Shown: positions 5,508-27,930 of the stretch, piece by piece | Layout: every line of letters begins with the position of its first letter | How positions within the stretch are numbered: the stretch's first letter is position 1 | Source: Mycobacteriales bacterium | GTDB taxonomy: Bacteria; Actinomycetota; Actinomycetes; Mycobacteriales; SCTD01 | Reading direction: 5' to 3' | Length of the DNA: 32,095 nt | Assembly (NCBI GenBank): GCA_046594005.1 | Contig: JBKJQM010000127.1 | Location: forward strand, 1-32,095 | Program-made: the position numbers and the translations under genes | The notes under the pieces: generated by a model | What the model was told of the DNA's origin: nothing | The model's input: only the letters and a program-made list of their open reading frames with translations | Databases searched by the model: none

Positions 5508-6326
5508 CTAGAGACCGGCGCGCGCGGCGCCGAGGCCGACGACGCGGCCGTACTGCGCGCCGAGCAGGCGGGGGAGCGCCGCCATCGCCCAGGCGTCCGG
5601 GCCGACGAGGATGCGGGCCTTGTCACGTCGCAGCCCGCGCACGATGGTCCGGGCGGCCGTCTGCGGTGACGTGCGCGCGAGCTGGTCGAACAGGTCGGCG
5701 GTCTGCGCCGGGTCCTCCGACGCGGTGGTGCGGGCGTTGCGGGCGATGGCCGTCCGGATTCCGCCGGGGTGGATGCAGCTGACGCTGACGGGGGTCCCGC
5801 TGGTCGCCATCTCCTGGCGCAACGCCTCGGTGAAGCCCCGCACGGCGAACTTCGCGGCGTTGTAGGCCGCCTGCTTGGGGACCGCGATGATGCCGAAGAT
5901 GCTGGAGACGTTGGCCAGCTGACCGTCGCCGGACGCGGCCAGGTGCGGCAGGAACGCCTGCGACCCCGCGACGACGCCCCAGTAGTTGATGTCCATGAGC
6001 CAGTGCATGTCCTTGTCGGACAGCTCGGCGACCGGGCCGTGCAGCGCGACGCCGGCGTTGTTGACCACCAGATGCACGGCGCCGAAGTCTGCGGCCACCT
6101 GGTCGGCGTGCGCGAAGACCGCCTCGCGGTCCGCGACGTCCAGCGCGTACGAGCCGACGTCGCCGCCGAACCGGCTCACGACCTGCGCGGTGTCGGCCAC
6201 CGACGCCTCGTCGACGTCGGACAGCGCGAGCCGAGCGCCGTGGCCGGCCAGCTCGATCGCGAGCGCCCTGCCGATGCCCGACCCGGCCCCCGTGATGACG
6301 GCCGTCCTGCCTGCGTAGCCCCGCAC
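5508..6326 (-). CDS. short-chain dehydrogenase/reductase (SDR) family oxidoreductase
   Basis: 272 aa. It has the TGAGSGIG Rossmann motif, NNAG and the catalytic YNAAK. GGGGAGGGG lies upstream of the GTG start. Confidence 0.9.
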   Translation of the reverse strand: MRGYAGRTAVITGAGSGIGRALAIELAGHGARLALSDVDEASVADTAQVVSRFGGDVGSYALDVADREAVFAHADQVAADFGAVHLVVNNAGVALHGPVAELSDKDMHWLMDINYWGVVAGSQAFLPHLAASGDGQLANVSSIFGIIAVPKQAAYNAAKFAVRGFTEALRQEMATSGTPVSVSCIHPGGIRTAIARNARTTASEDPAQTADLFDQLARTSPQTAARTIVRGLRRDKARILVGPDAWAMAALPRLLGAQYGRVVGLGAARAGL

Positions 6327-12376: not shown

Positions 12377-13204
12377 GTGGCCAGCCGGGTTGTGCAGCGC
12401 TCCGAGCGGTGGCTCGCCCGGTTCGGCGGCGACGTGCCGACTCTCGCGCACCTGCTGCTCGACGCCGCCCGGTCGGCAGCCGGCCGTCCTGACGGCATGT
12501 CGGACCTGCGCGAGAGCGCGCAGGGCCTGGGGGTCCTGCGCGCCCAGGAGGGGCACGCCGTCGCCGGGCTCGTCGAGGACCTCGTCTCGCTGCGCGAGGT
12601 GCTGATCGCCGACGGGCACCCGGCGGACGCCGCCCACGCGGTGGTCGACGTGGCGCTCTCGCTGGCCGCGGCCGCCTACGTCGACGAGCTCACCGCGGTC
12701 CTCGGCAGGAAGGCCACGCGCGACCCGCTCACGGGTCTGCCGAACCGCGCGGCCTTCGAGGAGGCGGTGCTGCACGAGATCGCCGGCGGACCCCGGTCGA
12801 CCCCGCCGGCTCTGGTCCTGGTCGACCTCGACCGCTTCAAGCTGGTCAACGACACCGACGGCCACCTTGCCGGGGACGCGGTCCTCGTCGCGGTGGCCGA
12901 TGTCCTGCGCAGCAACCTGCGCCCCTCGGACGTCGCCTGCCGGTTGGGCGGCGACGAGTTCGCGGTCGTCCTCGGACGCACCTCGCCGGCCAAGGCGCTG
13001 CAGATCGCGCGCCGGCTGCTCACGGCTGCCCGCGTCGCGCCGGGGCTGTCGAGCCCGGGCGCGCGCGTCACGTTCAGCATGGGGATCGGCTGGCTGCCGA
13101 CGCCGTCGGAGGCGCAGGACCTGGTGGCGCTGGCCGACGGTGCGCTGTACGCGGTCAAGCGCGCCGGCGGGGACGACGTCCGGACCGCCGAGGGCTCCGC
13201 GTGA
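12377..13204 (+). CDS. GGDEF diguanylate cyclase with a helical N-terminal domain and a canonical I-site
   Basis: 275 aa. Motifs present are DPLTGLPNRAAF, DLDRFKLVNDTDGHLAGD and GGDEF. An RPSD (RxxD) sits exactly 5 residues upstream of GGDEF. An alternative in-frame start is the ATG at 12497. Confidence 0.85.
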   Translation: MASRVVQRSERWLARFGGDVPTLAHLLLDAARSAAGRPDGMSDLRESAQGLGVLRAQEGHAVAGLVEDLVSLREVLIADGHPADAAHAVVDVALSLAAAAYVDELTAVLGRKATRDPLTGLPNRAAFEEAVLHEIAGGPRSTPPALVLVDLDRFKLVNDTDGHLAGDAVLVAVADVLRSNLRPSDVACRLGGDEFAVVLGRTSPAKALQIARRLLTAARVAPGLSSPGARVTFSMGIGWLPTPSEAQDLVALADGALYAVKRAGGDDVRTAEGSA

Positions 13205-14283
13205 TGGGGCGGCACAGCCGGCGCCGGCGGCACCGGCCGTACGGGGGCGCCGACCGGCTGCTCCTGCTCGCGTCGGTGCTCGGCGGGTCTGCCGAGACGG
13301 CGACCGCGCTGGTGCAGCAGGCTCGACGGGGCGTCGGCCGCGGCTGGACGCGCACCGCCGACCAGGAGCTGGTCCCGCTGCTCGCCGGGCTGGCGGACGC
13401 GCTGCCGGACGCCGACGAGGCACGGGGCCGCCTGCTGCAGGTGCTGGTCGACGTCGAGCACCGCCCGCTCGCCACGTGGGGTCCGCGAGTCTGCGGCAGC
13501 GTGGAGGAGGCGCGCCTGCTGCTCGAGGCCGCGCGCCGTCGGACGGGCACCGAGTCGCGCGGAACGGCCTGCCGCGGCTGGCGTCTGGTCGCGAGCCGCG
13601 ACCGGCTCACCCACGCCGAGCAGCAGGCAGCTGACGGTCATCTCGAGCTGTGCCGCCGGTGCCGCGAACGGCTCGCGGCGGTGGAGCGGAGCCGACGTGA
13701 GCTGATCGGTGCGGCCACCGCGACGGCCTCCCTCGTCGCCGCCGGAGCAGCCGTCGCCGGCGGCTCGGTCACGGCTGCGGCGGGCGGGCTGCTCGCCGGC
13801 AAGACCGCCGTTGCCGTCGTGGCTGCGCTCGGCACCGCGGTCGCCGTCGGCGGCGGCATCACGGTGGCGCAGGGGTCGGCCGTCGACCGGCCGCCCTCCT
13901 CGCCGTCCGTGCAGGTCGCGACCAGCAGTGCGCCGAGCCCGACGACGACGCCGCCGGCGAGCAGTCCTGCCGGTACGGCGCCGGTCCCCGGTACGTCGGT
14001 CACACCCGTGGTGCCCGCCGCTCCCGCAGCAGACGGAGGCGGTGCGTCTCCCACGACCGGTCCTGCCCAGGCGCCGCTGCCGGAGGCGAGCCTGCCGGCC
14101 GGCGCACCGGTGCTGCCTTCCCTGCCACCGCTGCCGGAGGTGTCCGTGCCGGTGCTGCCGTTGCCCCTGCCGTCGTCCCTGCTGCCCCCGTCGTCGCTGC
14201 CGCTGCCCCCGCTGCCCCCGCTGCCCCCGTTGCCCGTCCCGCTGCCGTCGTCGATCCAGGTGCCCTTCCCCGTCCTGCGCTGA
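13201..14283 (+). CDS. ZAS-motif (HxxxCxxC) anti-sigma-factor-like single-pass membrane protein with a Pro-rich extracytoplasmic tail
   Basis: 360 aa. The start GTG at 13201 (or ATG at 13204) overlaps the TGA of the upstream GGDEF gene (GTGATG). The N-terminus has sigma region-4-like stretches (ADRLLLLASVLGGSAETATALVQQARR and LLQVLVDVEHRPL...SVEEARLLLEAARRR). These are followed by GHLELCRRCRERL, an Ala/Gly-rich TM segment and a P/S/T/L-rich tail. Confidence 0.7.
   Translation: MMGRHSRRRRHRPYGGADRLLLLASVLGGSAETATALVQQARRGVGRGWTRTADQELVPLLAGLADALPDADEARGRLLQVLVDVEHRPLATWGPRVCGSVEEARLLLEAARRRTGTESRGTACRGWRLVASRDRLTHAEQQAADGHLELCRRCRERLAAVERSRRELIGAATATASLVAAGAAVAGGSVTAAAGGLLAGKTAVAVVAALGTAVAVGGGITVAQGSAVDRPPSSPSVQVATSSAPSPTTTPPASSPAGTAPVPGTSVTPVVPAAPAADGGGASPTTGPAQAPLPEASLPAGAPVLPSLPPLPEVSVPVLPLPLPSSLLPPSSLPLPPLPPLPPLPVPLPSSIQVPFPVLR
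14203..14229 (+). repeat. three perfect tandem copies of CTGCCCCCG (encoding LPP repeats)
   Basis: Read directly at 14203..14211, 14212..14220 and 14221..14229. A fourth identical copy lies at 14182..14190. All lie inside the Pro-rich tail of the ZAS-like ORF. Confidence 0.9.
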
Positions 14284-14431
14284 CGCGCGAGCGGGGACGA
14301 CTGCCCGCGGCCACGGAGTCGGGACCTTCGGCCCCTGCCGGTGCACCTGTTCGCGTGGACGATGGGGCGAGCCCGAAGGACCGACAGGGCCGCCCGACAC
14401 CACCACCCAGGCCCGACCCCGGAGGTCACCC

Positions 14432-14650
14432 GTGAACACCCGCCGCCTCGCCCTGCTCGCCGGCTCTGCCCTGCTGGTGCCGCTGGCGCTGGTGGTCACC
14501 GCCGGCCCCGCCCTCGCCGTTCCGCCGAGCCCCACGTTCGGCTCGCACGTCGCTTCGTGTGCGCAGATCTCGACCGGCTTCACCGCTGAGATGAACCCGA
14601 GTCACCACCACGGCCCCGACGCCGACGACATGACCGGCATGTCCTGCTGA
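14432..14650 (+). CDS. small secreted His/Met/Cys-rich peptide (72-aa precursor, about 43-aa mature); candidate metal (copper) binding
   Basis: GGAGG (14421..14425) lies 6 nt upstream of the GTG at 14432. The Sec-type signal reads VNTRRLALLAGSALLVPLALVVTAGPALA|VP. The predicted mature part is VPPSPTFGSHVASCAQISTGFTAEMNPSHHHGPDADDMTGMSC. Codons are GC3-rich. In the ORF track it is hidden inside a 313-aa shadow ORF. Confidence 0.7.
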   Translation: MNTRRLALLAGSALLVPLALVVTAGPALAVPPSPTFGSHVASCAQISTGFTAEMNPSHHHGPDADDMTGMSC

Positions 14651-14772
14651 CCGGGCGCGCCCCGGCGACAGGGGAGCGTGAGCGGCCCGCCGGCCGCTCC
14701 GCTCGCGTCCTGGCGACCTACGAGCGGGCCGCCCGCGGCTACGACCGGTACTGGCGGCGGCTGTGGCTCCTG

Positions 14773-15363
14773 GTGGCCGGCGGCGCCGCCGAGAAGGCGA
14801 TGCTCGACGCGGTGACCGCAGCCGTGACGTCCGCCGCCATGACGACGGCCGCCGGCCGGCCGCGGGTCCTGGACGCTGGTGCGGGCACCGGCGCGCTGTC
14901 CCGCCGGCTGGCGCAGCTGCTGCCCGGCACGCACCCCGTCCTCGTGGACCTCTCGCCGGGCATGCTCGAGGGCGCCCTCGACCTGGCCGACCCGCGGGCG
15001 GTCGCGTCGGTGGCGGCGCTGCCGTTCGCCGACGACACGTTCGACGTGGTCATGTCCGCCTGGGTCATCGAGACGGTCGACGACCCCGCCGCCGCGGTGA
15101 CGGAGATGCTGCGGGTGCTGAGGCCGGGCGGACTGGTCGCGTACTCGTTCTGCTCCCGTCCCGCCCGTCGCTGGGACCGGTGGCGGACCGGCCCGACGCG
15201 GGCGGTCGTCCACGCGCTGTTCGCCGGCCACTTCCTGCGCGAGGAGCGGACGCCGTTCCACGACTGCGCGGCGTCACGGCGCAGCTCGTTCGGATCCGGA
15301 GCGGCCTCGGTCGTGCTCCTCGGCAAGTGCTGCACCATCGCAGAGGCCGACAATACCCCTTAG
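14773..15363 (+). CDS. class I SAM-dependent methyltransferase (start probably upstream of the first canonical start codon)
   Basis: The SAM-binding motif is VLDAGAGTGALSRRL, followed by DLSPGML, FDVVMSAWVIE and LRPGGLV. The frame stays open upstream to 14590 and reads ...ARVLATYERAARGYDRYWRRLW, which looks like a genuine MTase N-terminus. No ATG/GTG/TTG precedes it in frame. Confidence 0.75.
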   Translation: MAGGAAEKAMLDAVTAAVTSAAMTTAAGRPRVLDAGAGTGALSRRLAQLLPGTHPVLVDLSPGMLEGALDLADPRAVASVAALPFADDTFDVVMSAWVIETVDDPAAAVTEMLRVLRPGGLVAYSFCSRPARRWDRWRTGPTRAVVHALFAGHFLREERTPFHDCAASRRSSFGSGAASVVLLGKCCTIAEADNTP

Positions 15364-15369
15364 GGGTAT
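15353..15369. promoter_or_regulatory. perfect 8-1-8 palindrome ATACCCCT-T-AGGGGTAT; candidate CsoR/RicR-type copper-repressor operator
   Basis: Read directly. It overlaps the TAG stop of the methyltransferase ORF and lies about 80 nt upstream of the 15450 start. The GC tract with TA flanks matches the general architecture of CsoR-family operators. The 1-nt spacer rules out an RNA hairpin. Confidence 0.55.
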
Positions 15370-15449
15370 CATCGGTCGGTCCCTTCGACGTGGGGGCAGG
15401 TGTGGAGCCCCGCCGCCTCGAGCGGCGGCGCCCAGGGAGCAGACATACC

Positions 15450-15890
15450 GTGACGAGCATGGGCGGGACTGCGGTGAGGACGAGGGCGGCCTACCCGCTC
15501 GCTGTCCTCGGCGTGCTGCTCGGGCTGCTCGCGATGCACGGCCTCGCCAGCGCCCACCACGCCGCTGCGAGCTCGGCCCGGCTCGTGACGCAGGACGTGC
15601 CCGACCCCGCGGCGCACCACCACGGCAGCGCCGTCGCGCTGTCCGCTGCTGCTCGCGACGTCGTGCTTGCCGCGCCAGCACGCCCGGCCTGTGACCAGGA
15701 CTGCCCTGCGGTCGTCGTGCTCTGCCTCGCGGTGCTGACCGGCGCCGCGCTCGCGCTGCTGCTGGCCGGCCGCCGCTCCCGGGCACTGCCTCTGCCGCCC
15801 GCGCGGCGTACCGCCGGCGCGCTTCCACGTCCGGCGCGACACGCTCGGGGGCCCGATCCCGTACGGGAGCTCTGCATCAGCAGGACGTAG
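15450..15890 (+). CDS. small His-rich membrane protein (resembles the DUF6153-type proteins that accompany DUF305 genes)
   Basis: 146 aa, with GGGAG about 10 nt upstream of the GTG at 15450. The N-terminal TM segment LAVLGVLLGLLAMHGLASAHH is followed by AAHHHGS, a Cys pair (ACDQDC) and a second TM segment VVVLCLAVLTGAALALLLAG. The family assignment is from memory only. Confidence 0.65.
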   Translation: MTSMGGTAVRTRAAYPLAVLGVLLGLLAMHGLASAHHAAASSARLVTQDVPDPAAHHHGSAVALSAAARDVVLAAPARPACDQDCPAVVVLCLAVLTGAALALLLAGRRSRALPLPPARRTAGALPRPARHARGPDPVRELCISRT

Positions 15891-15977
15891 GCCGACCGCC
15901 GCGCGCCACCGACCCCAAAGGCGCAGACGGCCCGACCCGCACGTCCCTGACACCCTCTTCCCGAACGGAGCACCACC

Positions 15978-16580
15978 ATGAACAAGCGCCACCTCACCGC
16001 GTCCGCGCTCCTCGCGTCCGCACTCGTCCTCACCGCCTGCGGCAGCAGCGGCGACGACACGGCCGCCGCCAACGGTGGCAGCAGCACCAGCGCCGAGACG
16101 GCCAAGGGCAACGACGCCGACATCGCCTTCCTGTCCGGCATGAAGCCGCACCACGAGCAGGCCGTCGAGATGAGCGAGATGGTCCTCGCGGCGAACCCGC
16201 CCGCCGAGGTCGCGGCGATCGCGCAGCAGATCAAGGGCGCACAGGCCCCCGAGATCGAGCAGATGACGACCATGCTCGCGGACCTCGGCGAGGGCGCCGA
16301 CGGCGGCCACAGCATGGGCAGCGGCATGGACATGGGCGCTGCCGGCCACGAGGGGATGATGAGCGACGCCATGATGACAGCGCTCGACGACGCGACCGGC
16401 ACCGACGCGGCCCGGCTCTACCTCGAGGGCATGGTCCGGCACCACCAGGGCGCCATCAAGGCCAGCGACGACGAGATCGCCGAAGGGAAGTACGCGCCCG
16501 CCCTCGAGCTGGCGAAGAAGATCAAGGCGGCGCAGACCACCGAGATCGCCGAGATGCAGGACCTGCTCGCGAACCTGTAG
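15978..16580 (+). CDS. DUF305 family lipoprotein (ferritin-like four-helix protein, associated with copper homeostasis)
   Basis: 200 aa. The lipobox is LVLTAC. There are two DUF305 signature repeats: DIAFLSGMKPHHEQAVEMSEMVL and RLYLEGMVRHHQGAIKASDDEI, plus two ...AQ.PEI.QM-type helices. Confidence 0.85.
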   Translation: MNKRHLTASALLASALVLTACGSSGDDTAAANGGSSTSAETAKGNDADIAFLSGMKPHHEQAVEMSEMVLAANPPAEVAAIAQQIKGAQAPEIEQMTTMLADLGEGADGGHSMGSGMDMGAAGHEGMMSDAMMTALDDATGTDAARLYLEGMVRHHQGAIKASDDEIAEGKYAPALELAKKIKAAQTTEIAEMQDLLANL

Positions 16581-27857: not shown

Positions 27858-27930
27858 TGCGCCGCCAGGGACTTGAACCCCGAACCCGCGGATTAAGAGT
27901 CCGCTGCTCTGCCAATTGAGCTAGCGGCGC
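27858..27930 (-). tRNA. tRNA-Lys (anticodon CTT)
   Basis: The reverse complement folds by hand as a cloverleaf: acceptor GCGCCGC/GCGGCGC, D-arm GCTC-AATTGGCA-GAGC and anticodon arm GCGGA-CTCTTAA-TCCGC (anticodon CTT). The variable loop is GGGTT and the T-arm is CGGGG-TTCAAGT-CCCTG, with discriminator A. The 3' CCA is not encoded. Confidence 0.93.

Follow-up and report, generated by a model that had tools for sequence, protein, structure and literature searches.

Does an open reading frame of 72 codons, read from GC-rich DNA and rich in histidine, methionine and cysteine codons, represent a genuine gene, and if so, what could its product do for the cell? This question is raised by a locus near the middle of the window, as we call the whole stretch of 32,095 nucleotides that was analysed. 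A preliminary description, made from the letters of this DNA, had proposed that the frame at 14432..14650 on the forward strand encodes an unannotated small secreted peptide that may bind copper outside the cytoplasm. We compared the frame, its product, its upstream region and its neighbours with those of its relatives, and weighed copper binding against other explanations.

A short conserved gene

The frame starts with GTG at 14432, comprises 72 codons and terminates with TGA at 14648-14650. A Shine-Dalgarno sequence, GGAGG, is located 6 nt before the GTG (14421..14425, forward strand), and the GC content by codon position (0.67/0.57/0.92) resembles that of the adjacent genes. Start, ribosome-binding site and high GC3 thus agree with what the preliminary description had reported. 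The same applies to the nesting of the frame within a shadow ORF of 313 aa (13709..14650), which is read in the same frame, ends in the 72 codons of the peptide ORF and overlaps with its upstream portion a better-supported gene in a different frame (13201..14283). The term "unannotated" was correct for the list of open reading frames used at that time, but it does not hold elsewhere, as gene callers and RefSeq have already entered members of the family as "hypothetical protein".

An ORF of 72 codons is by itself without significance in DNA of 73% GC, and the window contains dozens of overlapping ORFs, among which spurious long ones are frequent. Moreover, the gene as found in the window is present in three soil-metagenome DNA runs only. 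These observations would be in line with a chance frame that is never translated. Such a reading is nevertheless effectively refuted by comparison with related sequences, and we give it a negligible probability. The characteristic residues are conserved over hundreds of protein clusters and the signal peptide is retained, as are the start and the ribosome-binding site: six close homologues share a common start (ATG/GTG-AAC) preceded by the common motif GGAGGTC[AG]CC. In addition, the identical protein was gene-called on an independent soil-metagenome contig, which is 99% identical to the window and whose sole difference within the peptide ORF is synonymous. Since start, ribosome-binding site and core residues are conserved across homologues, and not because of its size, the 72-codon ORF is judged to be a genuine gene. 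For another family member (locus L052), three RNA-labelled runs contain short contigs that comprise nothing but the peptide gene and ~170 nt of upstream sequence and end at the stop codon; these contigs hint at expression of this one member.

The translated precursor consists of MNTRRLALLAGSALLVPLALVVTAGPALA, followed after the predicted cleavage site by VPPSPTFGSHVASCAQISTGFTAEMNPSHHHGPDADDMTGMSC. Residues 1-29 (14432..14518, forward strand) make up the predicted signal peptide, with two arginine residues near the N-terminus, a hydrophobic core and cleavage between ALA and VP. The predicted mature peptide of 43 aa (14519..14647, forward strand) carries the family core and, as confirmed by a recount, contains four histidine, three methionine and two cysteine residues, with no lysine or arginine. 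When judged by crude rule-based criteria, the window protein possesses a positive n-region, a hydrophobic h-region (best 12-residue Kyte-Doolittle window, 2.57) and small residues at positions -3 and -1. Features of n-, h- and c-regions are likewise found in 148 of 152 family members, in agreement with the earlier assignment of a Sec-type signal with this cleavage site, and the peptide is probably exported by this route. A lipobox was found in none of the 152 members. Export by the Tat pathway was considered for the stretch T-R-R-L-A-L-L in the window protein and rejected: the RR pair is missing in close homologues, a Tat-like motif occurs in only 3/152 members and S/T-R-R-x-F-L-K is not conserved.

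Conserved residues of an unnamed peptide family

Searches of the window protein against Pfam and NCBIfam returned no family at E <= 1, a profile search of the PDB gave nothing below E = 1.5, and none of the profiles for CusF, CopC, CopK, PcoE/SilE, PCuAC, DUF305/CopM or HMA matched it. When 44 family members were compared with Pfam, NCBIfam and PDB profiles, no consistent match emerged either. Two members showed weak similarity to the "HHHH-motif protein" NF040554 of NCBIfam (best E = 0.0014, cut-off 40 bits). This candidate was discarded, as the match of the one member examined (12.5 bits over residues 4-36) covers the signal peptide and not the His motif. Hence, the earlier statement that the peptide belongs to no named family is substantiated: the family is unnamed, mostly actinobacterial and has no database accession. 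Structure prediction with AlphaFold2 on a 112-sequence alignment resulted in a low-confidence model (pLDDT 59.9, pTM 0.25), in which the mature part forms a single helix (residues 38-48) and from which no site geometry can be read. The mature peptide is predicted to be largely disordered.

When clustered at 90% identity, the proteins retrieved by profile searches form at least 446 clusters, whose lengths nearly always fall within 63-85 aa and typically are about 65-75 aa; at 50% identity the family is represented by 50 clusters. With 72 aa including the signal peptide, the window precursor fits this range. Carriers are Streptomyces, Micromonospora, Nocardioides, Intrasporangiaceae, Propionibacteriaceae and many soil MAGs, with Streptomyces albogriseolus JCM 4616, Pimelobacter simplex, Janibacter sp. 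HTCC2649 and Knoellia locipacati among the strains, and a tblastn search of plasmids produced family matches on two Streptomyces linear plasmids only. The consensus core of the family, FGxHVxxCAQxxGFxGxHNPGMHxGxxGW…C, corresponds in the window protein to F36-G37-x-H39-V40-x-x-C43-A44-Q45 … G49-F50 … M54-N55-P56-S57-H58-H59-x-G61 … C72.

Position statistics were derived from 222 unique cores. The window protein contains all of the invariant residues (G37, H39, N55, P56, H59 and G61) and all of the near-invariant residues V40, C43, A44, G49 and F50 (broad alignment A2, also A4). The near-invariant G64 and W65 (A4) are not matched, because the sub-clade of the window protein has GP-x… at this place and lacks the tryptophan after the motif; it is further marked by NPSHH, as opposed to NPGMH in the family, and by a tail of the form M-x-x-M-x-C. 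Two ligand-like positions of the window peptide thereby deviate from the consensus. Position 54, a histidine in 200/222 and a methionine in 15/222 cores, is M54 in the window, and position 58, a methionine in 193 and a histidine in 15 of the 222 cores, is H58.

C43 and the cysteine in the C-terminal tail co-occur in 202 of the 222 cores. Eleven cores have lost C43, and nine of these carry histidine (7) or methionine (2) instead; in the same nine cores the tail cysteine is also absent and the tail is rich in histidine and methionine. An exchange of cysteine for histidine or methionine is usual for metal ligands, unlike for a purely structural disulfide. The replacement pattern therefore suggests that C43 may be a metal ligand, and the paired gain and loss of both cysteines is compatible with a disulfide, too. 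The initial proposal that histidine, methionine and cysteine residues of the peptide act as ligands is thus strengthened in part: H39, C43, positions 54 and 58, H59 and the C-terminal cysteine are conserved, but the HHH run is not, as position 60 can be Q, R or H in the family, nor is the MTGMSC tail as a whole.

Neighbouring genes and the upstream region

The copper context that had been noticed around the window gene extends to the family. Family loci (n=77) were gathered with the narrower alignment A3 as query and compared to 80 control loci centred on an unrelated ABC transporter. At least one copper gene was present within ±5 kb in 38/77 family loci and in 4/80 control loci (odds ratio 18.5, Fisher p = 1e-10); about half of the 77 family loci are without a copper gene within 5 kb. 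The copper neighbours comprise CopA-type ATPases (21 loci), multicopper oxidases (14), CsoR (11), DUF305 proteins (10) and CopZ (9), and SHOCT membrane proteins, cytochrome b domain proteins and DoxX-like proteins also recur. The ATPase at locus L002 carries the motifs CPC, YN and MxxSS, which in P1B-1 pumps are hallmarks of specificity for Cu(I). On pFRL4, a plasmid of Streptomyces sp. F2, the gene for the family member WP_024126353.1 is flanked on one side by that for a SHOCT protein and on the other by that for a cytochrome b domain protein, and a metal-sensitive regulator as well as a heavy-metal ATPase are encoded nearby. Within the 32-kb window no gene for CopA, CsoR, a multicopper oxidase or CopZ was found. 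An unverified ORF for a protein of ~9 kDa has been proposed in Corynebacterium glutamicum between cg3286 and copR (PMC3140484); our plasmid searches gave no Corynebacterium match.

CsoR-type boxes are more numerous in family loci (21) than in the controls (3). The sole good match to the pattern TACCC-N3-7-GGGTA in the window, at 15354-15368, lies in a perfect palindrome, ATACCCCTTAGGGGTAT, at 15353..15369 (no strand assigned), which overlaps the stop codon of a methyltransferase gene. It is located upstream of a gene for a His-rich membrane protein with a weak match to DUF6153 (15459..15890, forward strand; Pfam PF19650, E = 2.7e-4, under the gathering score). A DUF305/CopM-type lipoprotein is encoded at 15978..16580 on the forward strand (Pfam DUF305, E = 1.3e-41) and reaches 88.1 bits against the NCBIfam model of CopM, for which the cut-off is 90. 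Proteins of this family are periplasmic and bind copper, as has been reported for CopM (PMC4335983). The operator and the DUF305/CopM gene lie 0.7-1.3 kb downstream of the peptide gene. The palindrome described earlier is thus present in the cluster, but both the peptide gene and the methyltransferase gene precede it, and it is not part of the promoter of the former. Since a CsoR-type box within 600 nt upstream of the peptide gene was found in 0/77 family loci, CsoR control of the peptide gene was rejected, and the palindrome is assigned to the DUF6153/DUF305 genes.

The methyltransferase gene itself (14719..15363 with a putative start, forward strand) encodes a class I SAM-dependent enzyme (Pfam Methyltransf_11, E = 3.8e-21) whose orthogroup shows 63-84% identity across 13 loci. 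Its four invariant cysteine residues are consistent with a metal-related role. A family peptide is encoded within 1.4 kb of this methyltransferase in 6/12 assessable loci, in either gene order. At L002, L087 and L088 only 7-44 nt separate the two genes, and in the window no terminator was predicted between them. The methyltransferase is a likely operon partner of the peptide gene. This enzyme occurs in only 4/77 family loci, and about half of the methyltransferase loci contain no peptide gene; because these loci still lie within metal islands, an independent metal-related role of the methyltransferase is suggested. The class I methyltransferase beside a CsoR-type regulator on pFRL4 is only a distant paralogue of the window enzyme (32% identity over the SAM-binding core).

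Upstream of the peptide gene, a promoter or leader region at 14305..14431 (forward strand) is conserved with 73% mean identity in a five-locus alignment (A6). It contains element B, CCCGAAGGACCGACAGG (14371-14387, forward strand), a -10-like hexamer position that reads GACGAT in the window and TACGGT in the relatives, and a predicted DevR/OsdR (DosR-type) box, GGGACCTTCGGCCC, at 14321..14334 on the forward strand, 111 nt 5' of the start codon. This box follows the palindromic pattern GGGMC-N4-GKCCC, is the unique match in the window, where 0.06 are expected by chance, and recurs at an unchanged position in L002, L003, L087 and L088; looser boxes are found at L046, L054 and L058. Its sequence is identical to predicted OsdR sites of Streptomyces coelicolor, CGGGACCTTCGGCCCT and AGGGACCTTCGGCCCC, among those quoted in PMC5069765, and the known DevR/OsdR regulons have to do with hypoxia and redox stress, not with copper. 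The window encodes no DevS/DevR pair. Rfam gave no match near the gene, neither for the whole window at the gathering threshold nor for 14250-14700 at E <= 1, and simple promoter and terminator scans of 14100-16100 found nothing. A leader RNA structure was also considered: RNAalifold pairs the box with the Shine-Dalgarno region, but with an unfavourable covariation term, and a promoter or operator is preferred. Judging by the sequence, a promoter with a DevR/OsdR-type box seems to control the peptide gene.

Possible roles and comparison with known systems

With a confidence somewhat above even, we propose that the secreted peptide, as a member of a copper-linked family, binds copper in the envelope by means of a site formed by histidine, cysteine and methionine. 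The precursor would be exported and cut after Ala29, giving rise to a largely unstructured peptide of ~43 aa outside the cytoplasmic membrane. There, H39-x3-C43, (H/M)54-N-P-(G/S)-(M/H)58-H59 and the C-terminal cysteine would most likely make up a site for soft metals, with Cu(I) or Cu(II) as its probable occupant, and the peptide may buffer envelope copper or pass it on. CopA-type efflux ATPases, multicopper oxidases, DUF305/CopM, SHOCT membrane proteins and CopRS-like sensors would be the likely partners, because they are the most frequent neighbours. In the window and its close relatives, the peptide gene and the Cys-rich class I SAM methyltransferase would constitute one unit, and hypoxia, NO or redox stress would induce it through the DevR/OsdR-type box, not through the nearby CsoR operator. 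A more far-reaching version, in which a new family of envelope copper mini-proteins with a hitherto undescribed His/Cys/Met site forms together with the methyltransferase a DosR-type module against Cu(I) at low oxygen, when Cu(I) is more toxic, and the peptide is perhaps methylated before export, appears distinctly doubtful to us.

The box, conserved or in looser form at the loci named above, would also fit an envelope factor for hypoxia or redox stress that belongs to a DevR/OsdR-induced, dormancy-type regulon, with the cysteine pair acting as a thiol-disulfide switch or with another metal or cofactor bound (Zn, Ni, Fe, haem); the copper context would then reflect envelope-stress islands. This is in line with the co-variation of the two cysteines, the recurrent cytochrome b domain and DoxX-like neighbours, a CBS-domain neighbour at L001 and the arrangement at L004, where methyltransferase and peptide genes adjoin those for a GAF-HisKA_3 kinase, a Response_reg-GerE regulator and an Acg-type nitroreductase. 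However, DevS, DevR and nitroreductase neighbours are seen at one family locus only, and DevR-like regulators are no commoner than in the controls. The main neighbours are instead copper-specific (Cu(I)-type ATPase, multicopper oxidase, CsoR, CopZ), lost cysteines are replaced by histidine or methionine and not by neutral residues, and the peptide contains neither CxxCH nor any other haem motif. Hence, we regard a redox function or the binding of another metal or cofactor as unlikely.

Genes for histidine kinases of the OmpR/PhoR type (22/77 loci, 5/80 controls) and for response regulators (21/77 and 6/80) are frequent neighbours, often divergent from the peptide gene as at L065, and one family member bears the JGI annotation "Spy/CpxP family protein refolding chaperone". 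It is thus conceivable that the peptide serves, with or without metal, as a CpxP/ZraP-like accessory or signal of a membrane sensor and modulates a CopRS/CutRS-like kinase. We see a slim chance for this, as no two-component system is located beside the window gene, most loci are without a kinase and the Pfam family Metal_resist (CpxP/ZraP-like) matches 1/44 members at E = 0.29. Being compatible with copper binding, such a role would moreover represent a variant of the main explanation and no true alternative. The proximity of the methyltransferase in half of the assessable loci, the short gaps and the missing terminator would also suit a RiPP-like peptide that is methylated in the cytoplasm, for example at histidine or cysteine, and is active in its modified form. 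This is hardly probable in view of the few family loci with this methyltransferase and the many metal islands in which the enzyme occurs without a peptide. Furthermore, the N-terminus resembles a classical hydrophobic signal peptide and no RiPP leader, and neither another maturation enzyme nor a dedicated protease or transporter was seen nearby.

If the peptide does bind copper in the envelope, the family would be a widespread, uncharacterised part of actinobacterial copper handling. It would extend the known range of envelope copper proteins by a new ligand scaffold of very small size, and a name could be given to hundreds of "hypothetical proteins". As a peptide of 43 residues is within reach of chemical synthesis, its binding would be directly measurable. 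The DevR/OsdR-type box further points to a possible tie of hypoxia and redox signalling to envelope metal handling, which to our knowledge has been little explored outside Mycobacterium tuberculosis.

When compared to CusF, CopK, PcoE/SilE, CopC and CopM, the family resembles these proteins in its predicted signal peptide, its small size, its ligand-type histidine, methionine and, in part, cysteine residues, and the location of its genes beside those for Cu(I) efflux ATPases, multicopper oxidases and copper sensors; one protein of the CopM/DUF305 type is even encoded 1.3 kb downstream in the window. It differs from them by a much shorter mature part (about 35-45 aa), which is predicted to be largely disordered and shows no detectable sequence similarity to them, and we know of no conserved cysteine pair or HNPGMH motif as a feature of those families. 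With the CsoR/RicR regulons of Actinobacteria the locus shares a perfect palindrome in the cluster, and family loci exceed the controls in CsoR genes and boxes, but the palindrome is found 3' of the peptide and methyltransferase genes and none within 600 nt upstream of the family peptides. The promoters controlled by DevR/DosR in M. tuberculosis and OsdR in S. coelicolor are matched by a predicted box that equals predicted OsdR sites and has a comparable distance (~-50 to -110; PMC5069765), whereas the DevS/DevR pair is missing from the window and the OsdR targets quoted in that study include no small secreted His/Cys peptide. Within the family itself, an example for comparison is WP_024126353.1 of pFRL4, which agrees with the window peptide in length, signal peptide and the core motif of the family. 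The window peptide belongs to a distinct sub-clade, characterised by NPSHH, the loss of the tryptophan, the pairing with a methyltransferase and the DevR/OsdR-type box.

A conserved small gene and its family

The peptide gene (14432..14650, + strand) starts with GTG at 14432 and ends with TGA at 14648-14650, and a Shine-Dalgarno sequence GGAGG (14421-14425, + strand) lies 6 nt before the start codon. It represents the C-terminal 72 codons of a 313-aa ORF in the same frame (13709..14650), whose 5′ portion overlaps, in a different frame, the gene at 13201..14283. Its GC content per codon position (0.67/0.57/0.92) is like that of the neighbouring genes. The predicted signal peptide MNTRRLALLAGSALLVPLALVVTAGPALA is followed by the predicted 43-aa mature peptide VPPSPTFGSHVASCAQISTGFTAEMNPSHHHGPDADDMTGMSC, which contains four His, three Met, two Cys and neither Lys nor Arg. 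The coordinates, GTG start, GGAGG spacing, GC3-richness and mature composition of the preliminary description thus agree with the sequence. Since the window has 73% GC and is crowded with overlapping ORFs, ORF length is little evidence of coding, and the status of the gene is hence argued from its conservation.

The 360-aa ORF at 13201-14283 shares 4 nt with the stop-codon end of the GGDEF gene (12377..13204). Its product combines a CxxC-containing centre with a hydrophobic stretch and a C-terminus rich in Pro and Ser; it has no match in Pfam or NCBIfam and no homologue among the family loci. A tRNA gene (27858-27930, - strand, 66.8 bits) is the sole Rfam match in the window.

A word-index search identified a first homologue of 71 aa (59% identity), and three further ones were found in genome contigs. 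HMMER with a two-sequence profile yielded representatives of 50 clusters (50% identity), almost all of them 63-85 aa long, and a profile built from 44 members at least 446 clusters at 90% identity. None of these 446 clusters contains a Pfam domain, and with one exception ('Spy/CpxP family') all source-given names are 'hypothetical protein', as is the RefSeq name of WP_024126353.1, a member on the Streptomyces plasmid pFRL4. Searches of Pfam, NCBIfam and PDB returned no family for the window protein or any of the 44 members, bearing out the preliminary description, which had recognized no named family; weak NCBIfam 'HHHH-motif' hits fall on the signal peptide, and this identity was rejected. 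Members occur in 80 genome loci, including Micromonospora, Streptomyces, Nocardioides, Intrasporangium, Knoellia, Janibacter, Amycolatopsis and Propionibacteriaceae and also a few MAGs of Acidimicrobiia, Chloroflexi and Methylomirabilota. In the family consensus, the signal peptide leads into FGxHVxxCAQxxGFxGxHNPGMHxGxxGWxxxxxC, and a Met-Asn start and the ribosome binding site GGAGGTC[AG]CC are common to the six closest homologues (comparison loci L001-L004, L087 and L088). The identical protein was gene-called on an independent soil-metagenome contig (L085), which is 99% identical to the window without indels; the single difference within the ORF is synonymous. A spurious ORF is effectively excluded by this conservation and is highly improbable, and, judged by the same conservation, the ORF is a real gene of a large unnamed family.

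Conserved residues, predicted export and expression

Position statistics were taken from 222 unique cores (numbering of the 72-aa precursor), for which H39 and H59 were demanded by the search pattern; both are invariant in independent alignments too. Position 54 is His in 200 and Met in 15 cores, position 58 Met in 193 and His in 15, and C43 occurs together with a tail Cys in 202/222. The conserved, ligand-like His/Met/Cys positions are thus H39, C43, 54, 58, H59 and the tail Cys. C43 is absent in 11 cores, in nine of which it is replaced by His (seven) or Met (two), and in these nine the tail, too, lacks its Cys and is rich in His and Met. That both Cys disappear together would fit a disulfide; exchange for His or Met in particular is the pattern of metal ligands. 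The window peptide bears the minority variants M54 and H58, and H60, the third His of its HHH run, is Q, R or H in the family. Hence, neither the HHH run nor the MTGMSC tail, both stressed in the preliminary description, is a conserved family feature. A low-confidence AlphaFold2 model (112 sequences, pLDDT 59.9) contains a single helix (residues 38-48), which would place H39 and C43 on the same face, and is otherwise disordered. The terminal Cys is lost or overrun in some close homologues (L003 5893-6129, L088 3501-3755, L087 4569-4829), with the tails …MHGWPAR, …MHRTSDLVAGSTE and …MHCSACSSPARPSRK; these differences may be frameshifts, MAG assembly errors or real variation.

By a crude rule-based test, 148/152 members possess a positive n-region, a hydrophobic core and an AxA-like site, while a lipobox was found in 0/152 and a Tat-like motif in just three. 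The window T-R-R-L-A-L-L resembles a Tat motif, but the RR is absent from close homologues, so that Sec, as originally proposed, is the better reading of the export route.

The window sequence was found in no RNA run. For the peptide gene of a Pimelobacter simplex-like locus (L052, 5983..6183), three RNA-labelled metagenomic runs contain short contigs spanning 5817-6188 alone, i.e. the gene and ~170 nt upstream, ending at the stop codon. These contigs weakly suggest a short discrete transcript, at low depth and from libraries that may contain DNA.

Copper genes and a methyltransferase in the neighbourhood

We surveyed ±5 kb around the peptide gene in 77 loci by six-frame translation and comparison of the ORFs with reference proteins. 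A CopA-type ATPase was found in 21/77 loci, a multicopper oxidase in 14, CsoR in 11, a CopZ-like HMA protein in nine and DUF305, whose synteny the preliminary description had proposed to check, in 10. Any of these genes, or DUF6153, was present in 38/77 family loci versus 4/80 control loci around homologues of the window ABC transporter treated identically (odds ratio 18.5, Fisher p = 1e-10), an effect size that is approximate because control and family taxa overlap just partly. The ATPase of L002, a close family locus, has CPC, YN and MxxSS motifs, which mark Cu(I) specificity in P1B-1 pumps. On pFRL4, a divergent heavy-metal ATPase gene is followed by those for a SHOCT protein, the peptide, a hypothetical protein and a cytochrome b domain protein, with a metal-sensitive regulator and a second ATPase close by. 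A SHOCT membrane protein is encoded in 24/77 loci, mostly directly upstream on the same strand, and a cytochrome b domain protein in 11/77. In many of the loci L005-L084 the SHOCT gene abuts the peptide gene upstream (e.g. L016 5407-5949, L030 5458-5853, L099 8562-8855), and genes for a cytochrome b N-terminal domain protein and for an ABC-2 transporter pair recur as well; this arrangement may be a conserved operon.

The 32-kb window itself encodes no CopA, CsoR, multicopper oxidase or CopZ. It contains a perfect 17-bp CsoR-type palindrome, ATACCCCTTAGGGGTAT (15353-15369), overlapping the methyltransferase stop codon ~90 nt upstream of a DUF6153-like gene (weak match) and a DUF305/CopM lipoprotein gene; CopM is a reported copper binder (PMC4335983). 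CsoR-type boxes gave 21 hits in 17 family loci versus three hits in controls. CsoR control of the peptide gene was rejected, with 0 boxes within 600 nt upstream in any family locus.

The downstream methyltransferase (14719..15363, + strand) is of the class I SAM type. Its orthogroup (13 loci, all Frankiales- or Mycobacteriales-type MAGs, 63-84% identity) has four invariant Cys in FCSRP, HDC and CCT (window 14719-15363; L002, L086-L096), a pattern that recalls metal(loid) methyltransferases; no specific family match of that kind was found for the window enzyme. In six loci (window, L002, L087, L088, L092 and L094, the latter two on the contigs of L010 and L004, respectively) a family peptide is encoded no more than 1.4 kb away, leaving out of the count a further locus that begins at a contig edge. 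The peptide precedes the methyltransferase in five; the order is reversed in L004. Metal islands are the usual setting of the orthogroup, and ArsR-CopA, DUF305, DUF2933, multicopper oxidase or CsoR genes are present at the peptide-less loci too, so that the methyltransferase belongs to metal islands independently of the peptide. As it occurs in just 4/77 family loci, it is a partner in the window sub-clade and no general family partner. The conserved N-terminus YERAARGYDRYW begins at 14719 with no in-frame ATG, GTG or TTG upstream (window 14590-14800); the first in-frame start is GTG 14773, and the frame structure is identical in L085. A non-canonical start (e.g. CTG 14710), N-terminal truncation or frameshifting from GTG 14678 are possible.

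A DosR-type box and the possible role of the peptide

The 127 nt upstream of the peptide gene (14305-14431) share 73% mean identity with the upstream regions of L002, L087, L088 and L003. In L002 and L087, a DUF2933-like gene intervenes between this region and the peptide gene. The core of the window region is the sole DosR-type box of the window, GGGACCTTCGGCCC (14321-14334), identical to the predicted S. coelicolor OsdR/DevR sites CGGGACCTTCGGCCCT and AGGGACCTTCGGCCCC; for this site class, regulator binding was demonstrated by EMSA (PMC5069765). Element B (14371-14387) repeats the box as a degenerate inverted copy 51 nt further downstream. In the relatives, TACGGT follows the box by ~31 nt and resembles a -10 hexamer; if so, the centre of the box would fall near -43, as is usual in promoters activated by DevR. 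Looser boxes precede the peptide genes of L046, L054 and L058 (controls, 0-1 hits). The box of the window recurs in unrelated actinobacterial loci (L091 4534-4547, L035 8014-8027, L051 481-494 and 1044-1057, L074 4534-4547 and L007 5480-5493), at 90-135 nt ahead of genes that include DUF2933-like, DoxX-like, SHOCT-membrane and DUF1918 ones. This spread hints at a wider regulon overlapping metal islands. In L004, a GAF-HisKA_3 kinase, a Response_reg-GerE regulator and an Acg-type nitroreductase adjoin the methyltransferase and peptide genes; no regulator of this type is encoded in the window. Judged from sequence, a DosR-type regulator probably controls the family members of the window clade.

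In the best-supported reading, resting on conserved ligand-like residues and gene context, the peptide would be a Sec-exported mini-protein of ~43 aa that acts in the cell envelope as a ligand of a soft metal, most likely copper. There it would buffer the metal or shuttle it for co-encoded efflux, oxidation or sensing machinery. A redox or other-metal role tied to the DosR-type box is possible but unlikely. That the peptide is an accessory of a sensor is more doubtful still, even with two-component systems as frequent neighbours (OmpR/PhoR-type kinase in 22/77 loci, response regulator in 21/77) and the single 'Spy/CpxP family' name, and its being a substrate of the methyltransferase is less probable again.

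The family is a large one, and the copper hypothesis lends itself readily to testing, with function inferred throughout. In Corynebacterium glutamicum, an unverified ORF of ~9 kDa, divergent to copR, is mentioned for the cg3286-copR region of the copper-induced CopRS locus (PMC3140484); it is placed much like family members beside two-component systems. The family motif is absent from the searchable literature. The family has no detectable relationship to any described small envelope copper-binding protein and no database name; such proteins as a functional class are well known.
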